Positions 1-34,682 are shown, counted from the first letter of the stretch. The stretch is DNA of 64,000 nucleotides from Minisyncoccota bacterium (GCA_017881075.1 JADGRH010000001.1:59639-123638); one strand, 5' to 3'. Numbers and translations: made by a program. Notes: a model not told the origin generated them from the letters alone.

Positions 1-3000
1 GCAACCTCATCTATATTCAGGGTGAATGCTAATGGCAACGTCGGCATCGGGACGACGACACCGGGGTATAAGTTACACGTTAAGTCGGCTAGTGATATTC
101 AATTTGCTCTCGACGTTGATAGTGGAGGTAGATACACAAGTCAATATTTTCTGAATAATGGCTCAACTCGTGCGGTTAATTTTTGGGACGAGACGAGTAA
201 TAATTTAACAATTGGAACATCGCACTCGGGCGCAGATTTGATTTTCAATCGGGGATTAAATGCTGCAGCAATGACGATTAGTGGAACTACAGGCAACGTC
301 GGCATCGGGACGACGACGCCTAGTACAAAATTGTCAGTGGCAGGTCAAGGATTCTTTGAAACTTCGACTGAAACCCCAGTGGGTTCTGGAACTCCTGGTC
401 CTGGGATAAGGATTGGGTATCTTACAAGCGGTGATTATGGATATATAACTTCAAGTAATTCTGGTGTAGCGGCTAAAAACTTGGTTTTGCAGCCTGGCGG
501 AACTGGAAATGTGGGTATCAATCAAACTGTGCCATTAGATTTGCTTCATATAGCAGGTGATAACATAGCTACGATAAGATTGCAAAACACAATCTCTGGT
601 GGAAAAACGTACCAAATCGGTTCCGCCATTTCTGGTGTAAGTAATGCAGGTTTTCAAATCTATAATGTTACCAACTCAAGAAGTGAAATGGTAATTGATA
701 CAAACGGCAACGTCGGCATCGGGACGACGGCGCCGGGTGGAAAACTAAGTGTCTCCGGCGGTGCCGCTATTGGCTCATCTTACGCTACCACTGCAGTTTC
801 GGATGGAAATCTCATAGTTTCTGGTTCTTTGGGCATCGGGACGACGACTCCTGGATCTAAACTCGACATCTGGGGAAATCTCAATGTGGCTACTGGCACC
901 ACTCCGGCACTTTTCGTGAATACGGCGACGGGGAATGTGGGAATTGGAGTTATTAATCCCGGTAAACCTTTAGATGTAACGGGAGATATTAGAGCTAGTG
1001 GAAATCTGTTGGCAGGGGGCGGCAATGCTTATCTTTTTAACGGAGGAGTTAGATTAGGAAATTCTTCTGGAGAAATTGATCTTTCTGCTAACGATATGAT
1101 TTACGGACCCAATGCCGGAACAACCAATCATATATTCAAGATCGGAGGAAATGAAATCGCTAGGATAAATTCAACAGGAATCGGCATCGGCACGACAACC
1201 CCAGGAGCAAAGCTACATGCTCTTTCCACCACCGAGCAATTAAGACTAGGATACGATGCTTCAAACTACAATTCCTTCACTGTCGGTTCGACTGGAAGTC
1301 TCACAGTCGCCGCTGTAGGAACTAATCCTAATATCACCCTTACACCTGGTGGAACGGGGTATACCATATTGAACGGCAACGTCGGCATCGGAACGACGGC
1401 GCCGGGTCAAAAACTTGATGTGGCAGGAAACATTAATGTTTCAACTAATTCTGCCTATATGTATAACGGCCTGAATGTCATCACCGCATCAACTACATTG
1501 AGTAATTATTTCTTCGGTGGTTCTGGTAACTTAACAATGACTGGAAACGCCAACACCGCCAGTGGTTATCAGGCGCTCTATAGCAACACCACTGGAACCA
1601 CCAACACCGCCAGTGGTTTTCGTGCGCTCTATAGCAACACCACTGGAACCTACAACACCGCCAGTGGTATTAATGCGCTCTATAGCAACACCACTGGAAC
1701 CCGCAACACCGCCAATGGTCTTGGAGCGCTCTATAGCAACACCACTGGAGGCAATAATGCGGGATATGGTATCAACTCTGGCTACGGCCTCACCACTGGG
1801 AACAATAACACCTTAATCGGACCTTCTGATTCTGTGGTCGCTTCATACAATCAGGTTACTACTGGCTCTAACAACATTTCAATCGGCAACAATGTCGCCG
1901 TGGCCAGCCCAACGGCAAGTAATCAATTGAACATTGGTAATCTTATCTATGGTACAGGCTTGAATGGCACGGGAGCGACGATAAGTGGCGGCAACGTCGG
2001 CATTGGGACGATTGCCCCAGACAAAAAACTCGAAGTCAATTTAGGAACATCAGATGCTCTCCGACTCACTTACAACGACTCTGATGGAAGTGCGGCTAAC
2101 TATACGGATTTCAATGTTTCTTCCGTCGGAAGTTTGACCATTGCTCCCACAGGAACTAATCCTAATATTACTCTCACCCCAGGAGGAACGGGGTATACCA
2201 TATTGAACGGCAATGTTGGGATTGGGACGAGCACGCCGACGTTGCCATTGGTTGTTAACGGCAAAATTATGAGCTATGGGAACAGTACTAACCAGATTAC
2301 TATGTCACCGGCGGGCAATGGCGTAGACAGTTACGCTCATTTGCAAATATTCAACACCGCAGGGTATGGTCAGGGCTATTTGGATTTTTATACCTATCCC
2401 GGCCAGGGTCTGGGTACACCTACGGTAAGATGGCGGGGCGTTGACCTCGGCAGCTACACCGGTGGCCACGTATTCTCGGCTTCCGCCGCCTCGCAGAACG
2501 GCGCTTCCACGGATGTCTTATTCGTTGGAAATACCGGAGCTACTGGCGTACTTACTAATCATTTTGGCGTAGGTGTGTTAACTAACGCGCCAGTATCGGC
2601 GTTGGATGTTAACGGCGGGGTAAGCATCGGTTCATACGCCGCTGTTAACGCGGCCCCGAGCAACGGGTTAATTGTCAGTGGCAACGTCGGCATCGGGACG
2701 ACGACACCAGGATTTAATCTTCAGGTTGCAGGTACTGGAGTTTCAGCGGCATTTGGGGCGGCGGCAAATAATAACGGAGCGGGGGTTGCTTTCTTGGGGT
2801 CAAGCACTGGCAAAAATTTCTTTATCGGTAATCAATATAATATAGGTGGCGCTTTGGAGATTACGCCATCGACTGCCAATGGCGGTTCCACTTTCACGAC
2901 GCCTGTTGTCACAATTTTAAGCACCGGCAACGTCGGCATCGGGACGACGGCGCCAGGCACCAAACTGGAAGTGGTTGGTACGGCTTCTTCTACTGGTTTG

Positions 3001-6000
3001 CAGGTTAATGGCAACGGAGCAATCACAGGAACGATAAGTGCACCAACTTTTGTAGCTACCACAAACAATATCGCGTTCCTTTCACTAAAATCACTTTCTT
3101 CTACAATTGGAGTGGGAGTTACAAATGGAGATGTTCTTTCATTTGACTGGGGCGGAATATATCCAAAGGGGTATCAATTCAGAACATCGGCGACACAGGG
3201 GATTAATATAGATAGTTCAGGCAACGTCGGCATCGGGACGACGGCGCCAGGGGCATCTTTGCAAGTTGCTGGCACTGGTATATGGTCTAGCGTTTACGGT
3301 TTTTCTGCCGGTGGGAACGCGCCACTTGCAGTTGGCACAGCAGTACTTCGTACGGGTAATGACTTCCGTATTCAGGACGATGGTAGTTTTAAAATAAATC
3401 AAAGTGGCGCGGCGGCATTCCTGACAATATTAAACACCGGCAACGTCGGCATCGGCACGACGGCACCTAGGGAAAAACTTGATGTTGCGGGAAATATCAC
3501 CACGGATTGGGCAGACCGCTTCATTGGAACTGAATATCAAGATGGCTCTACTTACAGAATGGGTATGAAAGTAGTTACTTCAGATAGAGATTTGCAGATA
3601 ATTAACAAGAGCGCAGGAGAGAATTTTTCGGGAATTTCCTTTCATACGGGGACTGGTCCAACGGAGCGTATGAGAATTGATAAGGGCGGCAACGTCGGCA
3701 TCGGGACGACGAATCCTGGAAACAAGTTAGTTGTGAGCGGAGCCGGTTATACTTATGCAGAGGTAGATGCAAGTTCGAGCAGCGGAACATATTCCGGAGG
3801 TTATCGTGCATATAATGATGTCGGGGCACAGGTATTATTGGATATTTATGCCAGCTCCAGTGTGGGCACATATCTAGGCCAGCCTCTTTCTAATCTTGTA
3901 AGGTTAACGGATTATAGCGGTTCAAGCGGTATTGCCATAGGCACATACACAAATACTCCGCTCACGTTAGGCACCAATAATTCGGCAAGGTTGGTAATCA
4001 ATGGTGCAGGCAACGTCGGCATCGGGACGACGGCACCGAGTGCGAAGTTACAAGTAAATGTAGCCAGTGGGTATGCAAATACTTGGTGGTCAAATGATAG
4101 TGTAACTACTCCATTTAGCGCTATTTACGGAGCTCACGTTGTTGGGTCATTCGGTCAAAATTATTCAACGGGTGGAGGTGCTGATTTTGCTGGATTTAGT
4201 CACGCAAATAACGAAGTCGGGGTGGAATTTGACGGATATGTAGGGGGAACTAGTCCTACAGCACCTGCACTTTTATTGGCAGGTTGGAAGTCTAATGGCA
4301 CTACGGGTGCTTCGGCGATGAGTGGAACAGATATTATTGCGCAGATTGCGGCTGGTGCGTCTCCTGTTGTGACAGTTCAAGCAAACGGCAACGTCGGCAT
4401 CGGGACGACGTCACCTGTCTCAAAATTAGATGTCTCAGTAACTTCACCAGGGTCAACAAACTTTGGTTTAAGTGTGCGGGATTCTACCGTAACCCCAACG
4501 TATGCCAGTAATGCAGATAATCTTTTAACTGTAAGAGGGGCAGGCAGTTCGGTAACTACTTGGAAAGGAAGAATTACTGCAGGTGGAGATAATGTGGAAT
4601 TTCTTATGGGTGAATACAATTCTCTTGCTTGGTTAGGAGCGCATAATGCCGCCCTCAATGCTTGGACTAACATATATATTAACCCTGATGGTGGGTCAAA
4701 TGCATACATTGGAGATTCAGGTGGTGGAGTTAACAATATCCCAGTTCCGATTCTTGCGGTAATTAACAGCACCGGCAACGTCGGTATCGGGACGACGGCG
4801 CCAGATGTAAATCTAGCAATTGGTTCACAGTTACTTGGTGCGCAAGGATTAAGCGGAGCCGTCTTAAACCTTGGTGGTAGTTCCTCTCAAATGCCAGGCA
4901 TAAATATTGGGCAAGACGCTACTCACGCCATAGAGTTTTATTGGATAGGCAATGCGACACCTGGAAGTGCGACTGCTGCGTTGGAAACCTCTGGCTACTT
5001 AAATCCATTTGCTATTAACGGTTCAAAAACAACCATACAAAGTGCGGCTGGAAATGTGATATTGGCGACAGGTGGTGGCAACGTCGGCATCGGGACGACG
5101 GCACCGGGTGGAAAACTAAGCGTGTCCGGCGGTGCAGCTATTGGCTCATCTTACGCTACCACCGCAGTTTCGGATGGAAATCTCATAGTTTCTGGTTCTT
5201 TGGGCATCGGGACGACGGCGCCGGGGTCAAAGATTCAGGCTGTAGGAGGATATATATCAACTTTTGATAACACTGGATACGGACCTGCATTTATGCAAGG
5301 CGCAAGTGGTGTTTCATATTTCGGCAACACCGGGACTTCAAGAATTGCTTTCGGGAACAATACTAATTATGAAAGGATGACGATTTTAGATAACGGCAAC
5401 GTCGGCATCGGGACGACTACTCCGGGTTTTCTTCTCACTGTTGCTGGCACTTCCAACATCACCGGAGCGGCGATATTCGGATCGACTCTAGGAGTTACTG
5501 GTGCAACAACTCTTTCTTCAACTTTGGGCGTCACCGGCCAAACAACTCTGGCGAATGCTTCATCAACGAATCTCACCGTCTCCACTAATTCATATCTTGG
5601 AACTGTGCAGTCAGGAACTTGGAATGGAACGACCATTGCTGTAGCAAACGGAGGCACTGGCCAAACCACATACACTAATGGCCAACTCCTGATTGGTAAC
5701 ACTACCGGCAATACTCTTACAAAAGCAGCTTTGACAGGCACTACAAATCAAGTAGTAGTGACAAATAGCACAGGTTCAATCACTCTTTCCACTCCGCAGG
5801 ATATTGCTACGGCCTCCACTCCAACCTTCGCCTCAACCACTCTTTCAAACTTTACTCTAGGATCCATCCCATTCTTCGGCAGTAGTGGAAAACTGGGTCA
5901 AAACAATGCCAACTTTTTCTGGGATGGTACCAATAACAGATTAGGGATTGGGACATCTACTCCCGATACGCTCCTTACCGTTGCAGGAAACGGAAGATTC

Positions 6001-9000
6001 ACCGGCACCCTCTCCGCTTCAAATCTCTCCGGCACCAACACTGGCGATGTAACTCTAGGAGCAATTGCTGCTACTCCAAACGCAAACGGAGCTTCTCTTT
6101 CCGGGCAAGTCTTAACTTTGCAGCCAGCCTCGACTTCCTTTGGCGGTGTCGTTACAACCGGAACTCAATCGTTTACAGGAGATAAGACCTTTACATCAAA
6201 CTCACTCGCAGCTTTACAAGTTACGGGGAGTAACACAGGAAGAACCTCTATCACTGTTCAAAATACGAACGCATCAGGTAATGCATCATTCTACTTTCAA
6301 AATGATAGAGGTAGCTTCAATTCATACGGAGGCCTTTTGACAGGAGGTTCGTCAGATGTAGGAGGTACTTTATTTGGGCTTGCTCGTGCGGACAGAACCT
6401 TCTTGATAAATGATGGTACTAATGCTCTAGGACTTGCTCTTGGTACTTTGACAGCACAGCCATTGACACTAGGAACGAATAATTTGGCACGGGTCACAAT
6501 TCTAAGTGGTGGTAATGTCGGAATTGGAACGACAGCACCGACCAGCACACTTGAATTATATAGAGGCGATAACAATATCGGGCCAACTCTTACTTTGAAT
6601 AATCCTACTGGAAATGCAGGCACCGCCGGATCAGCAATAGACTTTCTCGGTTATAGCGGAGCGAGCCAGCCGGTTACTAATAGGATTAAAACCATCGACG
6701 ATGGAGCTTATGGCTATCATTTAGCATTTCTCACCAAAGCGGATTCTTCGGGAGGAGCACTTTTTGAAGCAATGAGGATACAAGGAGGCACGGGCAATGT
6801 TGGGATCGCCACCACCACTCCGGGCTTTCCACTTACAGTGACAGGCGCTTCTAATTTCACCGGCGCCCTCAACTTTAACGGCGCCGCTGGATCTTCCGGA
6901 AACATCCTCCAATCAAACGGATCGGGAAGCGCTCCAAGCTGGGTATCAACCACCACACTCGGTACCATTGCGGTAAACCAAGGCGGCACCGGCCAAACTA
7001 CTTATACAAACGGCCAGCTCTTGATCGGAAACACCACCGGAAATACATTAACAAAAGCAACTCTCACGGGCACCGCTAACCAAGTGAATGTTACGAATGG
7101 TGCTGGTTCAATTACCCTTTCTACTCCTCAAAATATTGGTACCACATCCTCTCCCACATTTAACTCTCTCAATATCGCTAATGGATCAACATATAGCGGT
7201 TGGATAGGTAATTTCGGGCTAGGCTCTGACTGGGTTGGATTTACCGCAGATGGAGCGCAAAGTGCTTCAAAGTATGCATTCGAAGCAACGGCATCATATG
7301 GTGAAACTGTTTTTAATGCTAACGGTGGGGGGACATTGCCCTTCATTGATTTTCGATTTTCCAACGGGGGTGTTGAACCTATTACCAGAATATATGGGTC
7401 TGGCGGGCTCTATTTTGGTAGTGTGGCTGGTGCTGCTGACCCCGGTTTACAGAACCTCTCTATCTTTTCTGGAAAACTTGGTGTTGGGGTTCTAACCGCT
7501 TCTGCCAAAATCCACGCCCTTTCCACCACCGAGCAATTAAGACTAGGCTACGATGCTTCCAACTACAATTCCTTTACTGTCGGTTCAACTGGAAGTCTCA
7601 CAGTCGCCGCTGTAGGAACTAATCCTAATATTACCCTCACGCCGGGCGGAACTGGGTATACCATATTGAACGGCAACGTCGGCATCGGGACGACGACGCC
7701 AGGGGCAAAGTTGAGTGTCAAAGGTGGTGGTACTACAACAGGTCTTAACTTCCAAACTACAAACTCTAATAACCTACCTTTGGTCACAATATTAGACTCC
7801 GGCAACGTCGGCATCGGGACGACGACGCCGGGGAATAAACTCCAGATAAATGCTGCTCTTGCCACTGCTTCTGAATCTTTGCTTCGTCTGTCTGGAGGGT
7901 CAACGGGATTTGCCGGGACCAATGATGCAGGCACTGCGTATTCTCTTGTGTTCGATGGTACTGCATATAGTGTTGGTACTGGAGTTGTGCAACGTGATGG
8001 TGCAAAGATTGAGATGGCAAAAGAGGCATCGTGGAACGAAGCCGGTGGTGGCGGCGGTCCGCTTGGAGCATTATTGTTCTACACGAGTGCAGGTTCAATT
8101 GCATCTCCGAAGCTAACGGAAAAAATGAGAATAACAAGTCTCGGCAACGTCGGTATCGGGACGACGGCGCCGGATTCGAAGTTAACTATTTCATCAAATA
8201 CCGCAACCTTACCGTCTGGGGCAGCCACACTTCGTATTGCTGAAGCCGATACCGTGCAGACTAGCGCGGTTATAGACGCTTTTGCTACTAACGGGCTTTT
8301 TAACTTTCGACGGGCCGACACTACGGCGGCAAGCCCCTCGGCGGTCCAGTCTGGTGAAAATTTGGGCGTGTTCGGCGCCGCTGGCTACGGAACCAGTGCT
8401 TATTCCGGCACCCGCGCCCGCGTTGGATTTTTTGCCGATGAGACTTGGACGAATACTGCTAATGGAACATCCATTCGCTTTAGCACTACGCTCAATGGCG
8501 CCGCCACAGCGGGAGGCACGGAACGCATGAGAATAGATAACGCCGGCAATGTCGGAATTGGCACCTCCACCCCGGACCAAGCTCTAGTTGTATCAGGTAC
8601 GGCAAGAGCTACCAACTTACTCGGAGGTGCCACAACTCTTTCAACCGATGCTTCAGGTAACATTATTCGTACTCCATCAGACATTAGTCTCAAGGAAAAC
8701 ATCCAAAATATCGATAGCGCTGATGCTCTAAGCCAGGTTCTAGCCCTTCAAGGAGTAACCTATTTCTGGAAGGACAAGGCGAGATTTGGCACTGCCCAAG
8801 AAATTGGCTTCATCGCCCAGCAAGTCGAACCGATTGTCCCCCAAGTAGTTAAAAGCGGAGGAGCCTACAAATCCCTTAACTATGGTAACTTAACAGCCGT
8901 CCTTGCCAGCGCCATTCAAGAGCAACAAAAACAGATTACAGCCAATGCTTCAACGACGCGGGCCAATGCCTCAAGCACCGCCTCCGCTCTTTCTTCACTG

Positions 9001-9606
9001 GATCTTAGAGTAAGTACCTTAGAGAACCTGGGACCCCAAAGAGGGGGTGGAGGAGTCAGCACTGGAATCTTTGAAGATCTCCTTTCAACACTACAATCCT
9101 TTGGCACCGAAATCGTTGACGGAGTTTCTTATATGAAGAACTTCCTTGCTGAACATCTCACTACCCAGAACTTGACTATAAAAGGCAAAGATATTACGAA
9201 GACAGGATTCACTATTTATGATCGGGCTACCGGCGATCCTATCTGCGTCTATTTTGAGAACGGGATCCAAAAGACTTCCCCAGGCGAGTGTCCCGACAGC
9301 ACAGCTACTTCAACTCCTCCAACAGACACTACCTCCATTGTCTCAGACAACAACCCCCCAATAGATCCCCTCACCGGATCCAGCACTCCTCCGATCTCCG
9401 ATATCGGATCAAATCCTCCTCCAGACCAACCCCCTCCAACACCACCACCCGCCGACCCCACTCCGCCCTCCGATCCCACCTCCTTGATAGCGCCGAGCGC
9501 CCCAACATCACCACCAGCCCCTGATACGTCAGGATCGAATCCTTCTGATTCGACGTCCGCTCCCGCTGATCCGGGCTCGGCTCCTTCCAATGGGGGAGGC
9601 AATTAG
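1..9606 (+). CDS. Giant repetitive surface/tail-fibre-like protein with GNVGIGTT repeats and C-terminal peptidase S74 (intramolecular chaperone) domain; 5'-truncated by the window
   Basis: Frame is open from base 1. About 28 GNVGIGTTxP-like repeats; S74-like segment SDISLKENI...LQGVTYFWKD...IGFIAQQVEPIVPQVV...LNYGNL near 8677-8940, then a coiled coil and a Pro/Ser/Thr/Asp-rich tail. Confidence 0.85.
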   Translation, partial: ATSSIFRVNANGNVGIGTTTPGYKLHVKSASDIQFALDVDSGGRYTSQYFLNNGSTRAVNFWDETSNNLTIGTSHSGADLIFNRGLNAAAMTISGTTGNVGIGTTTPSTKLSVAGQGFFETSTETPVGSGTPGPGIRIGYLTSGDYGYITSSNSGVAAKNLVLQPGGTGNVGINQTVPLDLLHIAGDNIATIRLQNTISGGKTYQIGSAISGVSNAGFQIYNVTNSRSEMVIDTNGNVGIGTTAPGGKLSVSGGAAIGSSYATTAVSDGNLIVSGSLGIGTTTPGSKLDIWGNLNVATGTTPALFVNTATGNVGIGVINPGKPLDVTGDIRASGNLLAGGGNAYLFNGGVRLGNSSGEIDLSANDMIYGPNAGTTNHIFKIGGNEIARINSTGIGIGTTTPGAKLHALSTTEQLRLGYDASNYNSFTVGSTGSLTVAAVGTNPNITLTPGGTGYTILNGNVGIGTTAPGQKLDVAGNINVSTNSAYMYNGLNVITASTTLSNYFFGGSGNLTMTGNANTASGYQALYSNTTGTTNTASGFRALYSNTTGTYNTASGINALYSNTTGTRNTANGLGALYSNTTGGNNAGYGINSGYGLTTGNNNTLIGPSDSVVASYNQVTTGSNNISIGNNVAVASPTASNQLNIGNLIYGTGLNGTGATISGGNVGIGTIAPDKKLEVNLGTSDALRLTYNDSDGSAANYTDFNVSSVGSLTIAPTGTNPNITLTPGGTGYTILNGNVGIGTSTPTLPLVVNGKIMSYGNSTNQITMSPAGNGVDSYAHLQIFNTAGYGQGYLDFYTYPGQGLGTPTVRWRGVDLGSYTGGHVFSASAASQNGASTDVLFVGNTGATGVLTNHFGVGVLTNAPVSALDVNGGVSIGSYAAVNAAPSNGLIVSGNVGIGTTTPGFNLQVAGTGVSAAFGAAANNNGAGVAFLGSSTGKNFFIGNQYNIGGALEITPSTANGGSTFTTPVVTILSTGNVGIGTTAPGTKLEVVGTASSTGLQVNGNGAITGTISAPTFVATTNNIAFLSLKSLSSTIGVGVTNGDVLSFDWGGIYPKGYQFRTSATQGINIDSSGNVGIGTTAPGASLQVAGTGIWSSVYGFSAGGNAPLAVGTAVLRTGNDFRIQDDGSFKINQSGAAAFLTILNTGNVGIGTTAPREKLDVAGNITTDWADRFIGTEYQDGSTYRMGMKVVTSDRDLQIINKSAGENFSGISFHTGTGPTERMRIDKGGNVGIGTTNPGNKLVVSGAGYTYAEVDASSSSGTYSGGYRAYNDVGAQVLLDIYASSSVGTYLGQPLSNLVRLTDYSGSSGIAIGTYTNTPLTLGTNNSARLVINGAGNVGIGTTAPSAKLQVNVASGYANTWWSNDSVTTPFSAIYGAHVVGSFGQNYSTGGGADFAGFSHANNEVGVEFDGYVGGTSPTAPALLLAGWKSNGTTGASAMSGTDIIAQIAAGASPVVTVQANGNVGIGTTSPVSKLDVSVTSPGSTNFGLSVRDSTVTPTYASNADNLLTVRGAGSSVTTWKGRITAGGDNVEFLMGEYNSLAWLGAHNAALNAWTNIYINPDGGSNAYIGDSGGGVNNIPVPILAVINSTGNVGIGTTAPDVNLAIGSQLLGAQGLSGAVLNLGGSSSQMPGINIGQDATHAIEFYWIGNATPGSATAALETSGYLNPFAINGSKTTIQSAAGNVILATGGGNVGIGTTAPGGKLSVSGGAAIGSSYATTAVSDGNLIVSGSLGIGTTAPGSKIQAVGGYISTFDNTGYGPAFMQGASGVSYFGNTGTSRIAFGNNTNYERMTILDNGNVGIGTTTPGFLLTVAGTSNITGAAIFGSTLGVTGATTLSSTLGVTGQTTLANASSTNLTVSTNSYLGTVQSGTWNGTTIAVANGGTGQTTYTNGQLLIGNTTGNTLTKAALTGTTNQVVVTNSTGSITLSTPQDIATASTPTFASTTLSNFTLGSIPFFGSSGKLGQNNANFFWDGTNNRLGIGTSTPDTLLTVAGNGRFTGTLSASNLSGTNTGDVTLGAIAATPNANGASLSGQVLTLQPASTSFGGVVTTGTQSFTGDKTFTSNSLAALQVTGSNTGRTSITVQNTNASGNASFYFQNDRGSFNSYGGLLTGGSSDVGGTLFGLARADRTFLINDGTNALGLALGTLTAQPLTLGTNNLARVTILSGGNVGIGTTAPTSTLELYRGDNNIGPTLTLNNPTGNAGTAGSAIDFLGYSGASQPVTNRIKTIDDGAYGYHLAFLTKADSSGGALFEAMRIQGGTGNVGIATTTPGFPLTVTGASNFTGALNFNGAAGSSGNILQSNGSGSAPSWVSTTTLGTIAVNQGGTGQTTYTNGQLLIGNTTGNTLTKATLTGTANQVNVTNGAGSITLSTPQNIGTTSSPTFNSLNIANGSTYSGWIGNFGLGSDWVGFTADGAQSASKYAFEATASYGETVFNANGGGTLPFIDFRFSNGGVEPITRIYGSGGLYFGSVAGAADPGLQNLSIFSGKLGVGVLTASAKIHALSTTEQLRLGYDASNYNSFTVGSTGSLTVAAVGTNPNITLTPGGTGYTILNGNVGIGTTTPGAKLSVKGGGTTTGLNFQTTNSNNLPLVTILDSGNVGIGTTTPGNKLQINAALATASESLLRLSGGSTGFAGTNDAGTAYSLVFDGTAYSVGTGVVQRDGAKIEMAKEASWNEAGGGGGPLGALLFYTSAGSIASPKLTEKMRITSLGNVGIGTTAPDSKLTISSNTATLPSGAATLRIAEADTVQTSAVIDAFATNGLFNFRRADTTAASPSAVQSGENLGVFGAAGYGTSAYSGTRARVGFFADETWTNTANGTSIRFSTTLNGAATAGGTERMRIDNAGNVGIGTSTPDQALVVSGTARATNLLGGATTLSTDASGNIIRTPSDISLKENIQNIDSADALSQVLALQGVTYFWKDKARFGTAQEIGFIAQQVEPIVPQVVKSGGAYKSLNYGNLTAVLASAIQEQQKQITANASTTRANASSTASALSSLDLRVSTLENLGPQRGGGGVSTGIFEDLLSTLQSFGTEIVDGVSYMKNFLAEHLTTQNLTIKGKDITKTGFTIYDRATGDPICVYFENGIQKTSPGECPDSTATSTPPTDTTSIVSDNNPPIDPLTGSSTPPISDIGSNPPPDQPPPTPPPADPTPPSDPTSLIAPSAPTSPPAPDTSGSNPSDSTSAPADPGSAPSNGGGN
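34..8166 (+). repeat. Dispersed 24-bp repeat GGCAACGTCGGCATCGGGACGACG within the giant ORF
   Basis: Exact copies start at 34, 292, 706, 2680, 2926, 3220, 3688, 4009, 4387, 5077, 7672 and 7801; one-mismatch copies at 1375, 3439, 4774, 5395 and 8143 (counted by eye). Confidence 0.95.
1552..1750 (+). repeat. 51-bp tandem repeat x4 (NTAxGxxALYSNTTGxx)
   Basis: Units start at 1552, 1603, 1654 and 1705; nearly identical DNA core gcgctctatagcaacaccactgga. Confidence 0.95.
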
Positions 9607-9629
9607 GGGTTAATCCCTGGTGGAATATC

Positions 9630-9652
9630 CATAAGAGGTTAAACCTCTTATG
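9630..9652. repeat. REP-like palindrome CATAAGAGGTT-A-AACCTCTTATG
   Basis: Perfect 11-bp arms around one central base; same architecture as the RAYT-2 REP. Confidence 0.7.
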
Positions 9653-9741
9653 AGCTTAGATCATGATTACTCACATTCTCATTAAAATTTCCATTAGTTT
9701 ACACGGTCTAGTGATGAAATATCGCTTCTTATTGCGTTAAT

Positions 9742-10428
9742 CTACGCTCCGATCTCCGATGTCGGATCGAATTCATCAAATGTTTTGGCAGGACTTGTGT
9801 CTACAAAATGCTTGTACTCTTCTTTGTTTTTAAATTGGTCAAGAATGAGATCTGTTTTTAGAAGTTCACCCCATCGATTTTCTCCAATATAGTCTTGATA
9901 ACTTGACCAAGGGTAAAAATGCTCCTTGTCCTTCCACCCCGGCAATTCTCGTGCGTTTCTATGAATATAAGCGGAAAGGTGAAGCAACTGAGTATTGTCT
10001 GCAATCAGGACACTCTTGAAAGCTCCCTGAAATAGGTGCCCGATATGAAGATCTTTATATTTTTCATTATTATATTTTGTAGCGGAGATTATAATTCTTT
10101 GTAAATATTTTGATAAAGCTCCATCTTTTTTCCCTGTCGCACTTAGATGAAAGTGATTTGGCATTAAGCCGAATGAGTGAAGCTCCACAGTACGCGAGGC
10201 GACGATCTCCGAAATGATTTTCTTGCTGACCTGGAATTTCCTATGCTTCTCAAAGTATTTTACATATTGAGATAGGTGGCTAAACTTAATCGGAGACTGG
10301 AAAAATAGTATAGTAAAAAGAAAGCGAATATAATCGCGATTATCGTGGAAAATAATTTGCTTATTATTGCCTCTGCTAAGGAGATGAAATACTTCACCCG
10401 CGGCCAAGTTGTCTTTTCTATATGGCAT
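9742..10428 (-). mobile_element. REP-associated tyrosine transposase (RAYT, IS200/Y1 HUH family) #1
   Basis: FHLLSRGNNKQIIF N-terminus, LMPNHFHL (HUH) motif, GHLFQGAFKS, YIHRN and YPWSSY; flanked by REPs. Confidence 0.9.
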
Positions 10429-10598
10429 TATCTTCCGATCTCCGATATCGGAAGATTTAGTATAATAATAGCAGATGAAATATCCTTAAAGATTTTATGA
10501 AAATTTCTTTTTACACTAGTCCGATATCGGAGAATGGAGGATTCATTATACTAGTGATTATTTGTTATAATATGGAGTATAAATTAATCAATTAGATT

Positions 10599-33897: not shown

Positions 33898-33968
33898 ATA
33901 ACTTTTTGTCGCTCTTTTATTTGACTTTGACCCGGAAGAAGATTAATCTCAGGTGAGGAAAACAGCTC

Positions 33969-34682
33969 ATGAAAAACACAAATAAGAAGAGATTTTTACC
34001 GGTGATTCACGTTGAAAAACTCTACGAGACAGAAGAAAATGCCAAAATTGCTTTTGACAACGGCGCCGATGGCATCTTTCTGATTATTTACAACATTCAG
34101 ACTTATAAACTGCTCGAAATCTACGATCGAGTGCGGATTCTATATCCAGATCGCTACATCGGCCTTAACCTACTTGACCTCGGGGCCGGAAGCGCTTTGA
34201 GACAAATTCCAAGGACGGCTAACGCCTTGTGGGTTGATAGTCCCGCTTTGGTTGGCAGTCCTTCCAACTGGCCTTTTTGTAAGAAAGCTAGGGAGTTCTG
34301 GGAACGCCGCCAGCAATATCCAGATTGGGAAGGTGAATGCTTCGTGGGTGTCGCCTTCAAGCATCAACCGACAATTCCTATGGCTGAACTGGCTGCGGTC
34401 ACAAAGGCCTCGGCGCCATTTATGGATGTTGTTGTCACAAGTGGTAAGGCGACAGGAGTGCCGCCGATACCGAGGAAGCTGGAGATCATGCGAGAGGCAA
34501 TTGGGAATGAAAAACGTCTCGCTCAAGCAAGCGGCATCACACCCAAAAATGTCTTTGACTCCTTGCCGTTCATTGACGATTTTATTGCCAACACTGGTGT
34601 CAGCAGGAGTCCGACAGAGTTGGAGCCGCGTCTCGTTAGGGTGACAGGGGACATCATTCACAATTACTCCTGTAGAAATTAA
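33969..34682 (+). CDS. BtpA/SgcQ-like TIM-barrel protein
   Basis: LPVIH, GADGIFLI, GLNLL, GVAFKHQ, VVVTSGKATG, ASGITPKNV. Confidence 0.7.
   Translation: MKNTNKKRFLPVIHVEKLYETEENAKIAFDNGADGIFLIIYNIQTYKLLEIYDRVRILYPDRYIGLNLLDLGAGSALRQIPRTANALWVDSPALVGSPSNWPFCKKAREFWERRQQYPDWEGECFVGVAFKHQPTIPMAELAAVTKASAPFMDVVVTSGKATGVPPIPRKLEIMREAIGNEKRLAQASGITPKNVFDSLPFIDDFIANTGVSRSPTELEPRLVRVTGDIIHNYSCRN

Follow-up and report, generated by a model that had tools for sequence, protein, structure and literature searches.

How does a single gene come to spell one short peptide with the same 24 DNA letters again and again, when the protein modules between the copies are mostly unrelated? The question is raised by a 64,000-nucleotide stretch of DNA from a Minisyncoccota bacterium (GCA_017881075.1, JADGRH010000001.1:59639-123638), referred to below as the window and numbered from its first letter. 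The window contains the 3′ part of a giant fibre gene (G000:C6:57512-69244, where G000 is the source genome; 3,910 aa), whose start lies 2.1 kb upstream of the first window letter. In this gene, the 24-letter word GGCAACGTCGGCATCGGGACGACG encodes the peptide GNVGIGTT. An initial annotation had taken the word for an integron- or shufflon-like site recognized by a recombinase. Our analysis favors another answer, to which we give a probability of about 0.62: the word would be a homology plug for in-frame module exchange by general recombination, kept standard by the exchange of modules.

The window holds 12 exact copies of the word and five copies with one mismatch, and all 17 lie on the + strand in the frame of a single open reading frame (ORF; Table 1), in agreement with the initial count. 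The 11 spacings quoted with that count all follow from the word positions, further word-to-word gaps are longer (414, 669, 1305, and 2277 bp), and the number of synonymous encodings given for GNVGIGTT, 24,576, is correct. Modules in the densest array measure 219-387 bp and are mostly mutually unrelated. Four more copies, with two to four mismatches, are found in the part of the gene upstream of the window, and GNVGIGTT occurs 21 times over the full gene, 12 times in the exact spelling of the word. A genome-wide count confined the word to this gene: no copy within five mismatches was found in the 716-kb genome outside it. A scan of the window for the reverse-oriented word within six mismatches found none, and all copies are direct repeats. 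Two further statements about the word held in part. The dyad CGTCG-N9-CGACG is present, and its extension GGC..GCC, said to occur in many copies, occurs in 9 of the 17, the final CC being there because a proline codon forces it. Copies of GNVGIGTT with a decayed spelling exist as stated, for example at 6511, but two of the cited examples, at 2209 and 8545, encode GNVGIGTS.

The word is kept as DNA and is not forced by the protein, as codon statistics, samples blind to the encoding, and variant counts agree. All eight of its third positions are G or C, compared to third-position GC values of 0.39 for the remainder of the gene and 0.42 for the genome, and it uses two codons that are rare in the source genome (GGG, 0.125; ACG, 0.112). 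The probability of the exact word given the peptide is 2.8e-6 under genome codon usage and 4.3e-6 under the gene's own usage. As a guard against circularity, two samples were assembled from stretches picked by peptide and not by spelling; these are not random draws. Among the matches listed, the word was the top spelling in both the viral sample (5/250 exact, and 30/250 within two mismatches vs 0.67 expected) and the metagenome sample (11/195, and 15/195 for a 21-mer version vs 0.07 expected). The codons enriched in these samples are specific, namely GGG at codon 6 and ACG, not ACC. Furthermore, the word's codon pairs are 2.7-9 times commoner inside the motif than outside for five of the seven pairs, which are clearly above background, and 1.7-3.5 times for the weakest. 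The preference of the genome for particular codons, which would have undercut the initial proposal, is thus rejected as the cause of the spelling by the probability of about 4e-6 per copy, the excess in the encoding-blind samples, and the codon-pair enrichment.

The ends of the conserved DNA are sharp. The joint between modules reads GNVGIGTT-x-P-xx-K-L, and codons 1-8 are fixed, whereas P10 and L14, equally conserved as residues (98% and 89%, respectively, in 524 near-consensus copies), use all synonymous codons; for P10, codon use in the encoding-blind samples is as expected. All but 3 of the exact copies (n=408) lie well inside an open frame and are read as GNVGIGTT. In the ORFs that carry the word, third-position GC falls to as little as 0.17. 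In the viral collection the word was found in >129 stretches and a one-change neighbor in 89, compared to 0, 1, 1, and 4 for GC-matched variants with two to four changes. The exact sequence matters, not structure or GC, and identity to one spelling is what is kept. Every third position of the word tolerates change, and of 21 deviations seen at bases 3-15 among word-rich loci, 19 are C>T. In decayed copies, Gly codons 4 and 6 differ in T:A (odds ratio [OR] 4.3), a possible "ghost" of the word, but codon context beyond the motif accounts for about half of this signal (OR about 2.2), which is therefore not used as support.

These counts bear on the proposal that generic GC-biased conversion, or selection for a stable duplex, arrives at the word independently in each lineage, or that assembly chimeras at the word counterfeit the swaps described below. 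Such an origin has in its favor that all third positions are G/C, that CpG is maximal, that the word ranks 8 of 24,576 encodings in duplex energy, and that contigs assembled at k=31 break at several word copies. However, the encoding ranked 11th in duplex stability was found in a single viral stretch, by which pure duplex stability or GC bias is rejected; other all-GC encodings are scarce, and the enriched codons are specific. As to chimeras, contigs of the source run have an even depth of 9-12 over the gene, and three exact copies (2680, 3688, and 4387) are spanned by them without differences. This makes assembly an improbable origin of the array, although this run is possibly the origin of the assembly and the comparison is therefore not independent. 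The duplicated blocks of the gene (Table 1) also differ by 6-8%. We regard this explanation as extremely improbable.

What, then, happens at the word? The word marks where modules in common start and end. First, module content varies, as had been predicted. Orthologues from the same genus have both termini in common and almost no internal modules. Nineteen of the 29 window modules have full-length relatives among 166 related proteins, spread over different proteins, and none of the 10 testable neighbor pairs is still adjacent in these. Module order is thus not invariant, with order at the strain level assessed in other proteins of the family; no close strain of the fibre protein was found among 2,117 candidates scored. 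Among 24 within-cluster protein pairs, one (P0038/P0155) matches completely as far as the last residue of GNVGIGTT and diverges from there on, another differs by an 86-aa unit, both ends of which lie in the motif, possibly through assembly collapse, and in a third the replaced block does not start at the motif. A module in two viral contigs is 82% identical in DNA, with its flanking words nearly unchanged.

Second, breakpoints are not random relative to the motif and concentrate at the word. In the first duplicated block of the gene, identity begins at base 1 of the word and stops just past the half-word at 823; in the second, the 3′ end lies just after the word and the 5′ end about 40 nt past a degenerate motif, with no intact word. 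Across all loci, 117 of 326 alignment ends fall near the motif (35 expected). Third-position identity rises from 0.42 at base 0 to 0.97 at base 3 in 31 pairs with a common downstream module and falls from 0.73 at base 24 to 0.27 at base 33 in 49 pairs with a common upstream module, many pairs of both kinds coming from a few genes. In a change-point analysis of 106 pairs, which are not independent, 77% of the mass lay between -3 and +30. The intervals of informative pairs do not overlap (-10..-4, 0..11, 12..34, 25..45, and 33..35), and the crossover thus has no fixed position within the site, with the caveat that later mutation or conversion can mimic scattered crossovers. Swaps were also seen in genes with decayed words only (G070, G048, and G065).

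Under the reading that we favor, RecA-type pairing or single-strand annealing, with no dedicated recombinase, would duplicate, delete, insert, and swap modules at the word. Its 24 identical GC-rich bases may be about the minimum needed by bacterial recombination. The minimal length for RecA/RecBC recombination (minimal efficient processing segment, MEPS) is reported as 23-27 bp (PMC12074656), and efficient recombination is described for an identity block between heterologous flanks (PMC8918686); these figures may not hold in this lineage. As the word is a structural joint, crossovers inside it keep the frame and presumably the fold. Copies that match the commonest spelling in the pool would have the most partners, recombine most, and be re-copied most, so that one spelling would be locked in by a frequency-dependent drive. 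Idle copies in settled parts of a gene would decay, mostly by transitions (C>T at bases 3-15). High GC and duplex stability are possibly, at a guess, why this spelling won. Incoming modules might arrive on foreign DNA or from phages; RecA and ComEC are both present in the source genome. Module codon usage lies mostly below the genome median, but amino-acid bias confounds this measure, which offers weak support at best for a foreign origin of the modules.

Several observations weigh against this reading, in addition to the mimicry of scattered crossovers mentioned above. The consensus word is not required for swaps, as decayed copies swap too. In multi-copy loci, the consensus stands at 54/250 swapped junctions vs 38/302 others (about 1.9-fold enriched), and the enrichment is not significant in any of three sampling groups (0/47 vs 8/349 in the encoding-blind group). 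Of 24 within-cluster protein pairs, 21 are collinear at the protein level, and breakpoints at module borders are also expected from selection on the protein alone. No switched molecules or circles, which the initial annotation had suggested looking for, were seen in contigs of three runs from one sample, two of which barely contain the stretch; a single odd joint in the contigs (side 21 nt, depth 2.5) is probably another organism's. For a single spelling to persist in bacteria, archaea, phages, and giant viruses, modules must travel between these groups, and comparison of bacterial, archaeal, and viral loci gave partial blocks of 80-84% identity only, with no near-identical whole module across domains. 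Finally, genes with decayed copies only exist (the same-genus orthologues, G020, and G061), and those tested carry the same RecA and ComEC, which thus do not account for the switch of a gene between word-rich and decayed states.

Some of these points would suit a word that is a mere passenger, that is, the old spelling of a successful GC-rich module family spread by duplication or transfer, with joints that the protein simply tolerates. The swapping of decayed copies and the weak enrichment at swapped junctions fit this explanation, as does the state of the order, in which most copies are decayed and 16 of the 61 peptide-bearing genomes have a near-consensus copy. However, under neutral inheritance the word should have eroded at the pace of the codons of P10 and L14, and it is intact between unrelated modules that are AT-rich at third positions. 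Where synonymous identity of the flanks is saturated (0.31), motif identity is still 0.63 if one copy is the consensus, in a class chosen on the word, and the 82%-identical viral module keeps its words. This makes a passenger quite unlikely.

Beyond the source genome, the exact word was found in at least 129 viral stretches and at least 150 genome stretches, in addition to 4 of 40 relatives, all from other families. Of 101 genomes in the order, 61 have the peptide and 16 have a 21-nt version of the word with at most one mismatch. Record titles with the word include many Patescibacteria, Woese-, Pace-, and Aenigmarchaeota, Methanosarcinales, Elusimicrobia, Omnitrophica, and Bdellovibrionales, a taxonomy in which bins may be mislabeled or contain prophages. 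A giant-virus capsid family adjoins the fibre gene at seven viral loci (one member confirmed by Pfam), and phage head, connector, or lysis genes lie near several others. The word thus recurs letter-perfect in Patescibacteria, DPANN archaea, phages, and giant viruses. When 1 kb of the gene was compared with cultured phage records, the outcome was a single weak match of 42 nt. Genes are bimodal in their near-consensus copies (G000 19/24 and G072 15/16 vs G020 0/18 and G061 0/19), and both same-genus orthologues (G001 and G002) have, like G020 and G061, wholly decayed spellings. Two side observations concern the spread of modules. In viral contigs L048, L066, L074, L079, and L086 and their neighbors, single modules bounded by the word are 82-98% identical in DNA, and a giant-virus capsid gene lies near some, so that giant viruses, too, appear to shuffle modules. 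Another recurrent spelling, in which the 5′ part is G-rich and C-free and the last nine bases are the same, tends to accompany particular upstream modules (L313, L347, L361, L442, L741, L743, L189, and L090).

The bimodal genes and the cross-domain spelling without near-identical shared modules keep alive the idea closest to the initial proposal, in which a sequence-specific recombinase or integration factor would act in trans on word-flanked cassettes. In its broadest form, the word would be a connector for a cassette commons of Patescibacteria, DPANN archaea, predatory bacteria, tailed phages, and giant viruses, read by a trans-acting factor in an integron-like, in-frame system without a resident integrase. 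The sharp word ends, the 5-bp dyad around a 9-bp spacer, the weight of exact sequence over structure or GC, and a tyrosine integrase within 3 kb at three viral loci are all consistent with such a factor. On the other side, change is tolerated at every third position, the copies are all direct, the crossover is not fixed, decayed words swap too, and the word is found both in prokaryotes and next to capsid genes of giant viruses. The source genome has one tyrosine recombinase (PF00589), on another contig, and G072 likewise has one of this kind, which is common to 98 of the order's 101 genomes. Of 80 viral loci with the exact word, only 3 have an integrase nearby, and none was seen beside peptide-sampled loci. 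Both the trans-acting factor and its broad form are unlikely in our judgment, and an integron- or shufflon-like site is not supported, in view of direct repeats only, scattered crossovers, swaps at decayed copies, and the lack of a tyrosine recombinase, Y1 enzyme, or RT tracking the word.

The search for a co-occurring recombinase, reverse transcriptase (RT), or HUH enzyme, suggested at the outset, gave no link for tyrosine recombinases, Y1 enzymes, or RTs. When 898 neighbor proteins were clustered, the only recurrent recombination genes were Y1 (11 loci) and integrase (three viral loci), in a search that did not extend to serine recombinases or phage annealases. The integrases at the three phage loci (L021, L052, and L087) are related proteins of 270-285 aa. 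The source genome has four Y1 genes, all on C6, of which one lies directly downstream of the fibre gene; its REP-like palindromes lie near 9389, 9748, 10433, and 10521 (9385-10540), one of them inside the C-terminal coding sequence of the fibre. Y1 is near 2 of 8 word-rich and 1 of 16 word-free relative loci and near none of 160 viral loci. With palindromes of its own and no association with the word across loci, the Y1/RAYT gene is rejected as the word's enzyme; unlike in RAYT/REP systems, it is adjacent but not linked to the word. RT genes occur in 9 of 16 word-positive and 36 of 85 other genomes. The source genome also has a complete-looking diversity-generating retroelement (DGR) at G000:C6:33506-35995, about 24 kb upstream of the window, with a 189-aa target, a 331-aa RT, and a small reverse-strand gene, which we take to be Avd-like. 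Its variable region (33943-34069) and template repeat (34445-34571) are 83% identical, with differences at template adenines, and a second gene, similar in promoter and N-terminus, lies at C5:91837-92123. As the DGR has its own template/variable pair, none matching the fibre gene, and RT does not track the word, it is rejected as the diversifier of the fibre.

Selection of the word as a hairpin in single-stranded DNA (ssDNA) or mRNA, either as a substrate for an HUH enzyme (Y1/RAYT) or as a ribosome pause timing module folding, is very unlikely. Folded as top-strand ssDNA, the word ranks 25 of 24,576 encodings (579 as RNA), yet fold z-scores are only -1.8 to -2.1 on that strand. Covariation between bases 9 and 21, present among viral copies (OR 3.0, p 0.002), does not reappear among metagenome copies (OR 0.92) and is weak when counted by locus (OR 1.5, p 0.2). 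The double variant that keeps the hairpin was found in one viral stretch, compared to four for the one that breaks it. The Y1 gene directly downstream is suggestive, but its distribution across loci, given above, is not. Hairpin selection is therefore rejected on the unreplicated covariation and the compensatory variant that is not favored.

Recombination at conserved motifs has reportedly been described for the distal tail fibres of T-even phages, by Tetart et al. in 1998. The fibre gene has two marks of motif-mediated exchange, namely DNA conservation beyond protein need at module borders and breakpoints at the motif. Pas et al. (2023, PMC10408124) described conserved motifs in receptor-binding genes of E. 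coli phages that are 20-95 nt long, 63-81% identical, flank one domain, and occur in six genera, and motif-recombination hotspots in phage receptor-binding genes are also treated in bioRxiv 10.64898/2026.05.12.724579. The word resembles the motifs of Pas et al. in being short conserved DNA at module borders of unrelated fibre or spike genes, for which homologous-recombination hotspots were proposed without a dedicated enzyme. Compared to these motifs, the word is letter-perfect, can recur 12 times or more in one gene, and is found across bacteria, archaea, tailed phages, and giant viruses. The R64 shufflon (Rci/sfx/pilV; bioRxiv 10.1101/2024.10.25.620183) likewise has a repeated short site in or beside an adhesin gene and in-frame exchange of variable parts. 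Unlike in the shufflon so described, the fibre gene has no adjacent recombinase, inverted sites, or fixed crossover, and its modules are all translated, none being stored silent.

Integrons combine repeated short sites, the attC sites being structure-dependent hairpins, with cassettes that are separate ORFs and an integron integrase. In the fibre gene, by contrast, the modules are parts of one ORF and no attC-like structural requirement was replicated; the integrase was examined by Pfam only.

At the protein level, the closest known relatives are the mosaic adhesive trimer (MAT) fibres of Bdellovibrio, an S74 subfamily with an SDxxxK motif and a capping-loop motif, V-G-I-G/N-x-x-x-P-x-x-x-L (Caulton et al. 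2024, PMC10769870). The GNVGIGTT joint is this capping-loop motif. The fibre resembles the MAT fibres of that account in its S74 chaperone with SDxxxK, its capping-loop motif, and its matches to solved chains (stretch 8143..8568; 8OML, E 3e-17; 8OND, named bd2133, E 4e-8). It differs in having approximately 30 such modules in one 3,910-aa chain, about 250 residues beyond S74, and probably a Patescibacteria host. The available text of the MAT paper (PMC10769870) does not mention conservation of the motif at the DNA level, and where it speaks of recombination, strain construction is meant. No published account of the word was found in the main texts of a largely open-access literature, and the supplementary motif alignment of the MAT paper may bear on it.

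The fibre consists of a hydrophobic N-terminus, approximately 30 modules, the S74 chaperone, and a coiled-coil-like and Pro-rich tail. In MAT fibres, a signal peptide precedes a conserved, beta-rich N-terminal domain of about 130 aa; the N-terminus of the present fibre has a domain common to the orthologues, for which a PDB search gave a motif-level match alone (E 0.14). A module of 51-bp tandem repeats (NTxxG-type; 1540-1750) evolves independently of the 24-mer. By analogy with MAT and phage fibres, the product may form trimers, bind, and attach to a host, and the binding surfaces of such a trimeric fibre on the cell surface would be changeable as a set. At least 517 giant relatives were found among the 2,117 candidates, the named ones being mostly from Patescibacteria; from this and the genome size, the host is probably a small-genome cell of this group. 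Directly upstream of the fibre gene, a cluster of four genes for predicted secreted proteins (G000:C6:53756-57429; L459; L462) is conserved in all three genomes of the genus; it is perhaps an anchoring or export set. A PD-(D/E)XK nuclease with a zinc ribbon and a four-helix-bundle gene stand beside fibre genes in 5-6 loci (L299, L304, L355, L442, and L444).

Table 1. Coordinates of the fibre gene, its words, and neighboring features in the window
Feature	Position	Strand	Remark
3′ 9.6 kb of fibre gene	1..9606	+	3,910-aa ORF
Exact words	34, 292, 706, 2680, 2926, 3220, 3688, 4009, 4387, 5077, 7672, 7801	+	
One-mismatch words	1375, 3439, 4774, 5395, 8143	+	
Word, exact	34..57	+	
Word, exact	292..315	+	
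Word, exact	7801..7824	+	
Half-word, GSLGIGTT	823..846	+	last 15 nt of word intact; same at 5194
Decayed word, 3 mismatches	1990..2013	+	GNVGIGTI
Decayed word, 6 mismatches	2209..2232	+	GNVGIGTS
Decayed word, 6 mismatches	6511..6534	+	another at 6793, 7 mismatches
Densest cassette array	2680..5418	+	7 exact words (2680, 2926, 3220, 3688, 4009, 4387, 5077), 3 one-mismatch (3439, 4774, 5395)
First duplicated block	706..860	+	93.5% identical to 5077-5231; opened by exact word 706-729
Second copy of 706-860 block	5077..5231	+	
Second duplicated block	1216..1411	+	91.9% identical to 7513-7709; ends just after one-mismatch word 1375
Second copy of 1216-1411 block	7513..7709	+	ends at exact word 7672
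One-mismatch word (8143), last module, decayed word (8545)	8143..8568	+	matches solved fibre chains
Peptidase_S74 intramolecular chaperone, SDxxLK motif	8677..8853	+	PF13884, E 6.9e-15, 55.5 bits vs cut-off 22
Y1/RAYT-like HUH gene, directly downstream of fibre gene	9742..10428	-	own REP-like palindromes

The system differs from the known cases in the exactness of the word, in the many copies within a single gene, and in its occurrence in bacteria, archaea, phages, and giant viruses alike, and that a coding word should be kept letter-perfect across such a range was unexpected. One in-frame DNA plug could make thousands of unrelated fibre modules interchangeable, which would give bacteria and archaea of the episymbiont type, phages, and giant viruses a concrete route to rebuild the fibres that probably choose their hosts. 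The word also opens to testing the general idea that, through frequency dependence, recombination itself can turn one synonymous spelling into a fixed standard. In practical terms, it is a warning for short-k assemblies of fibre genes, and it offers a simple probe for fibre genes that have recently been reshuffled.

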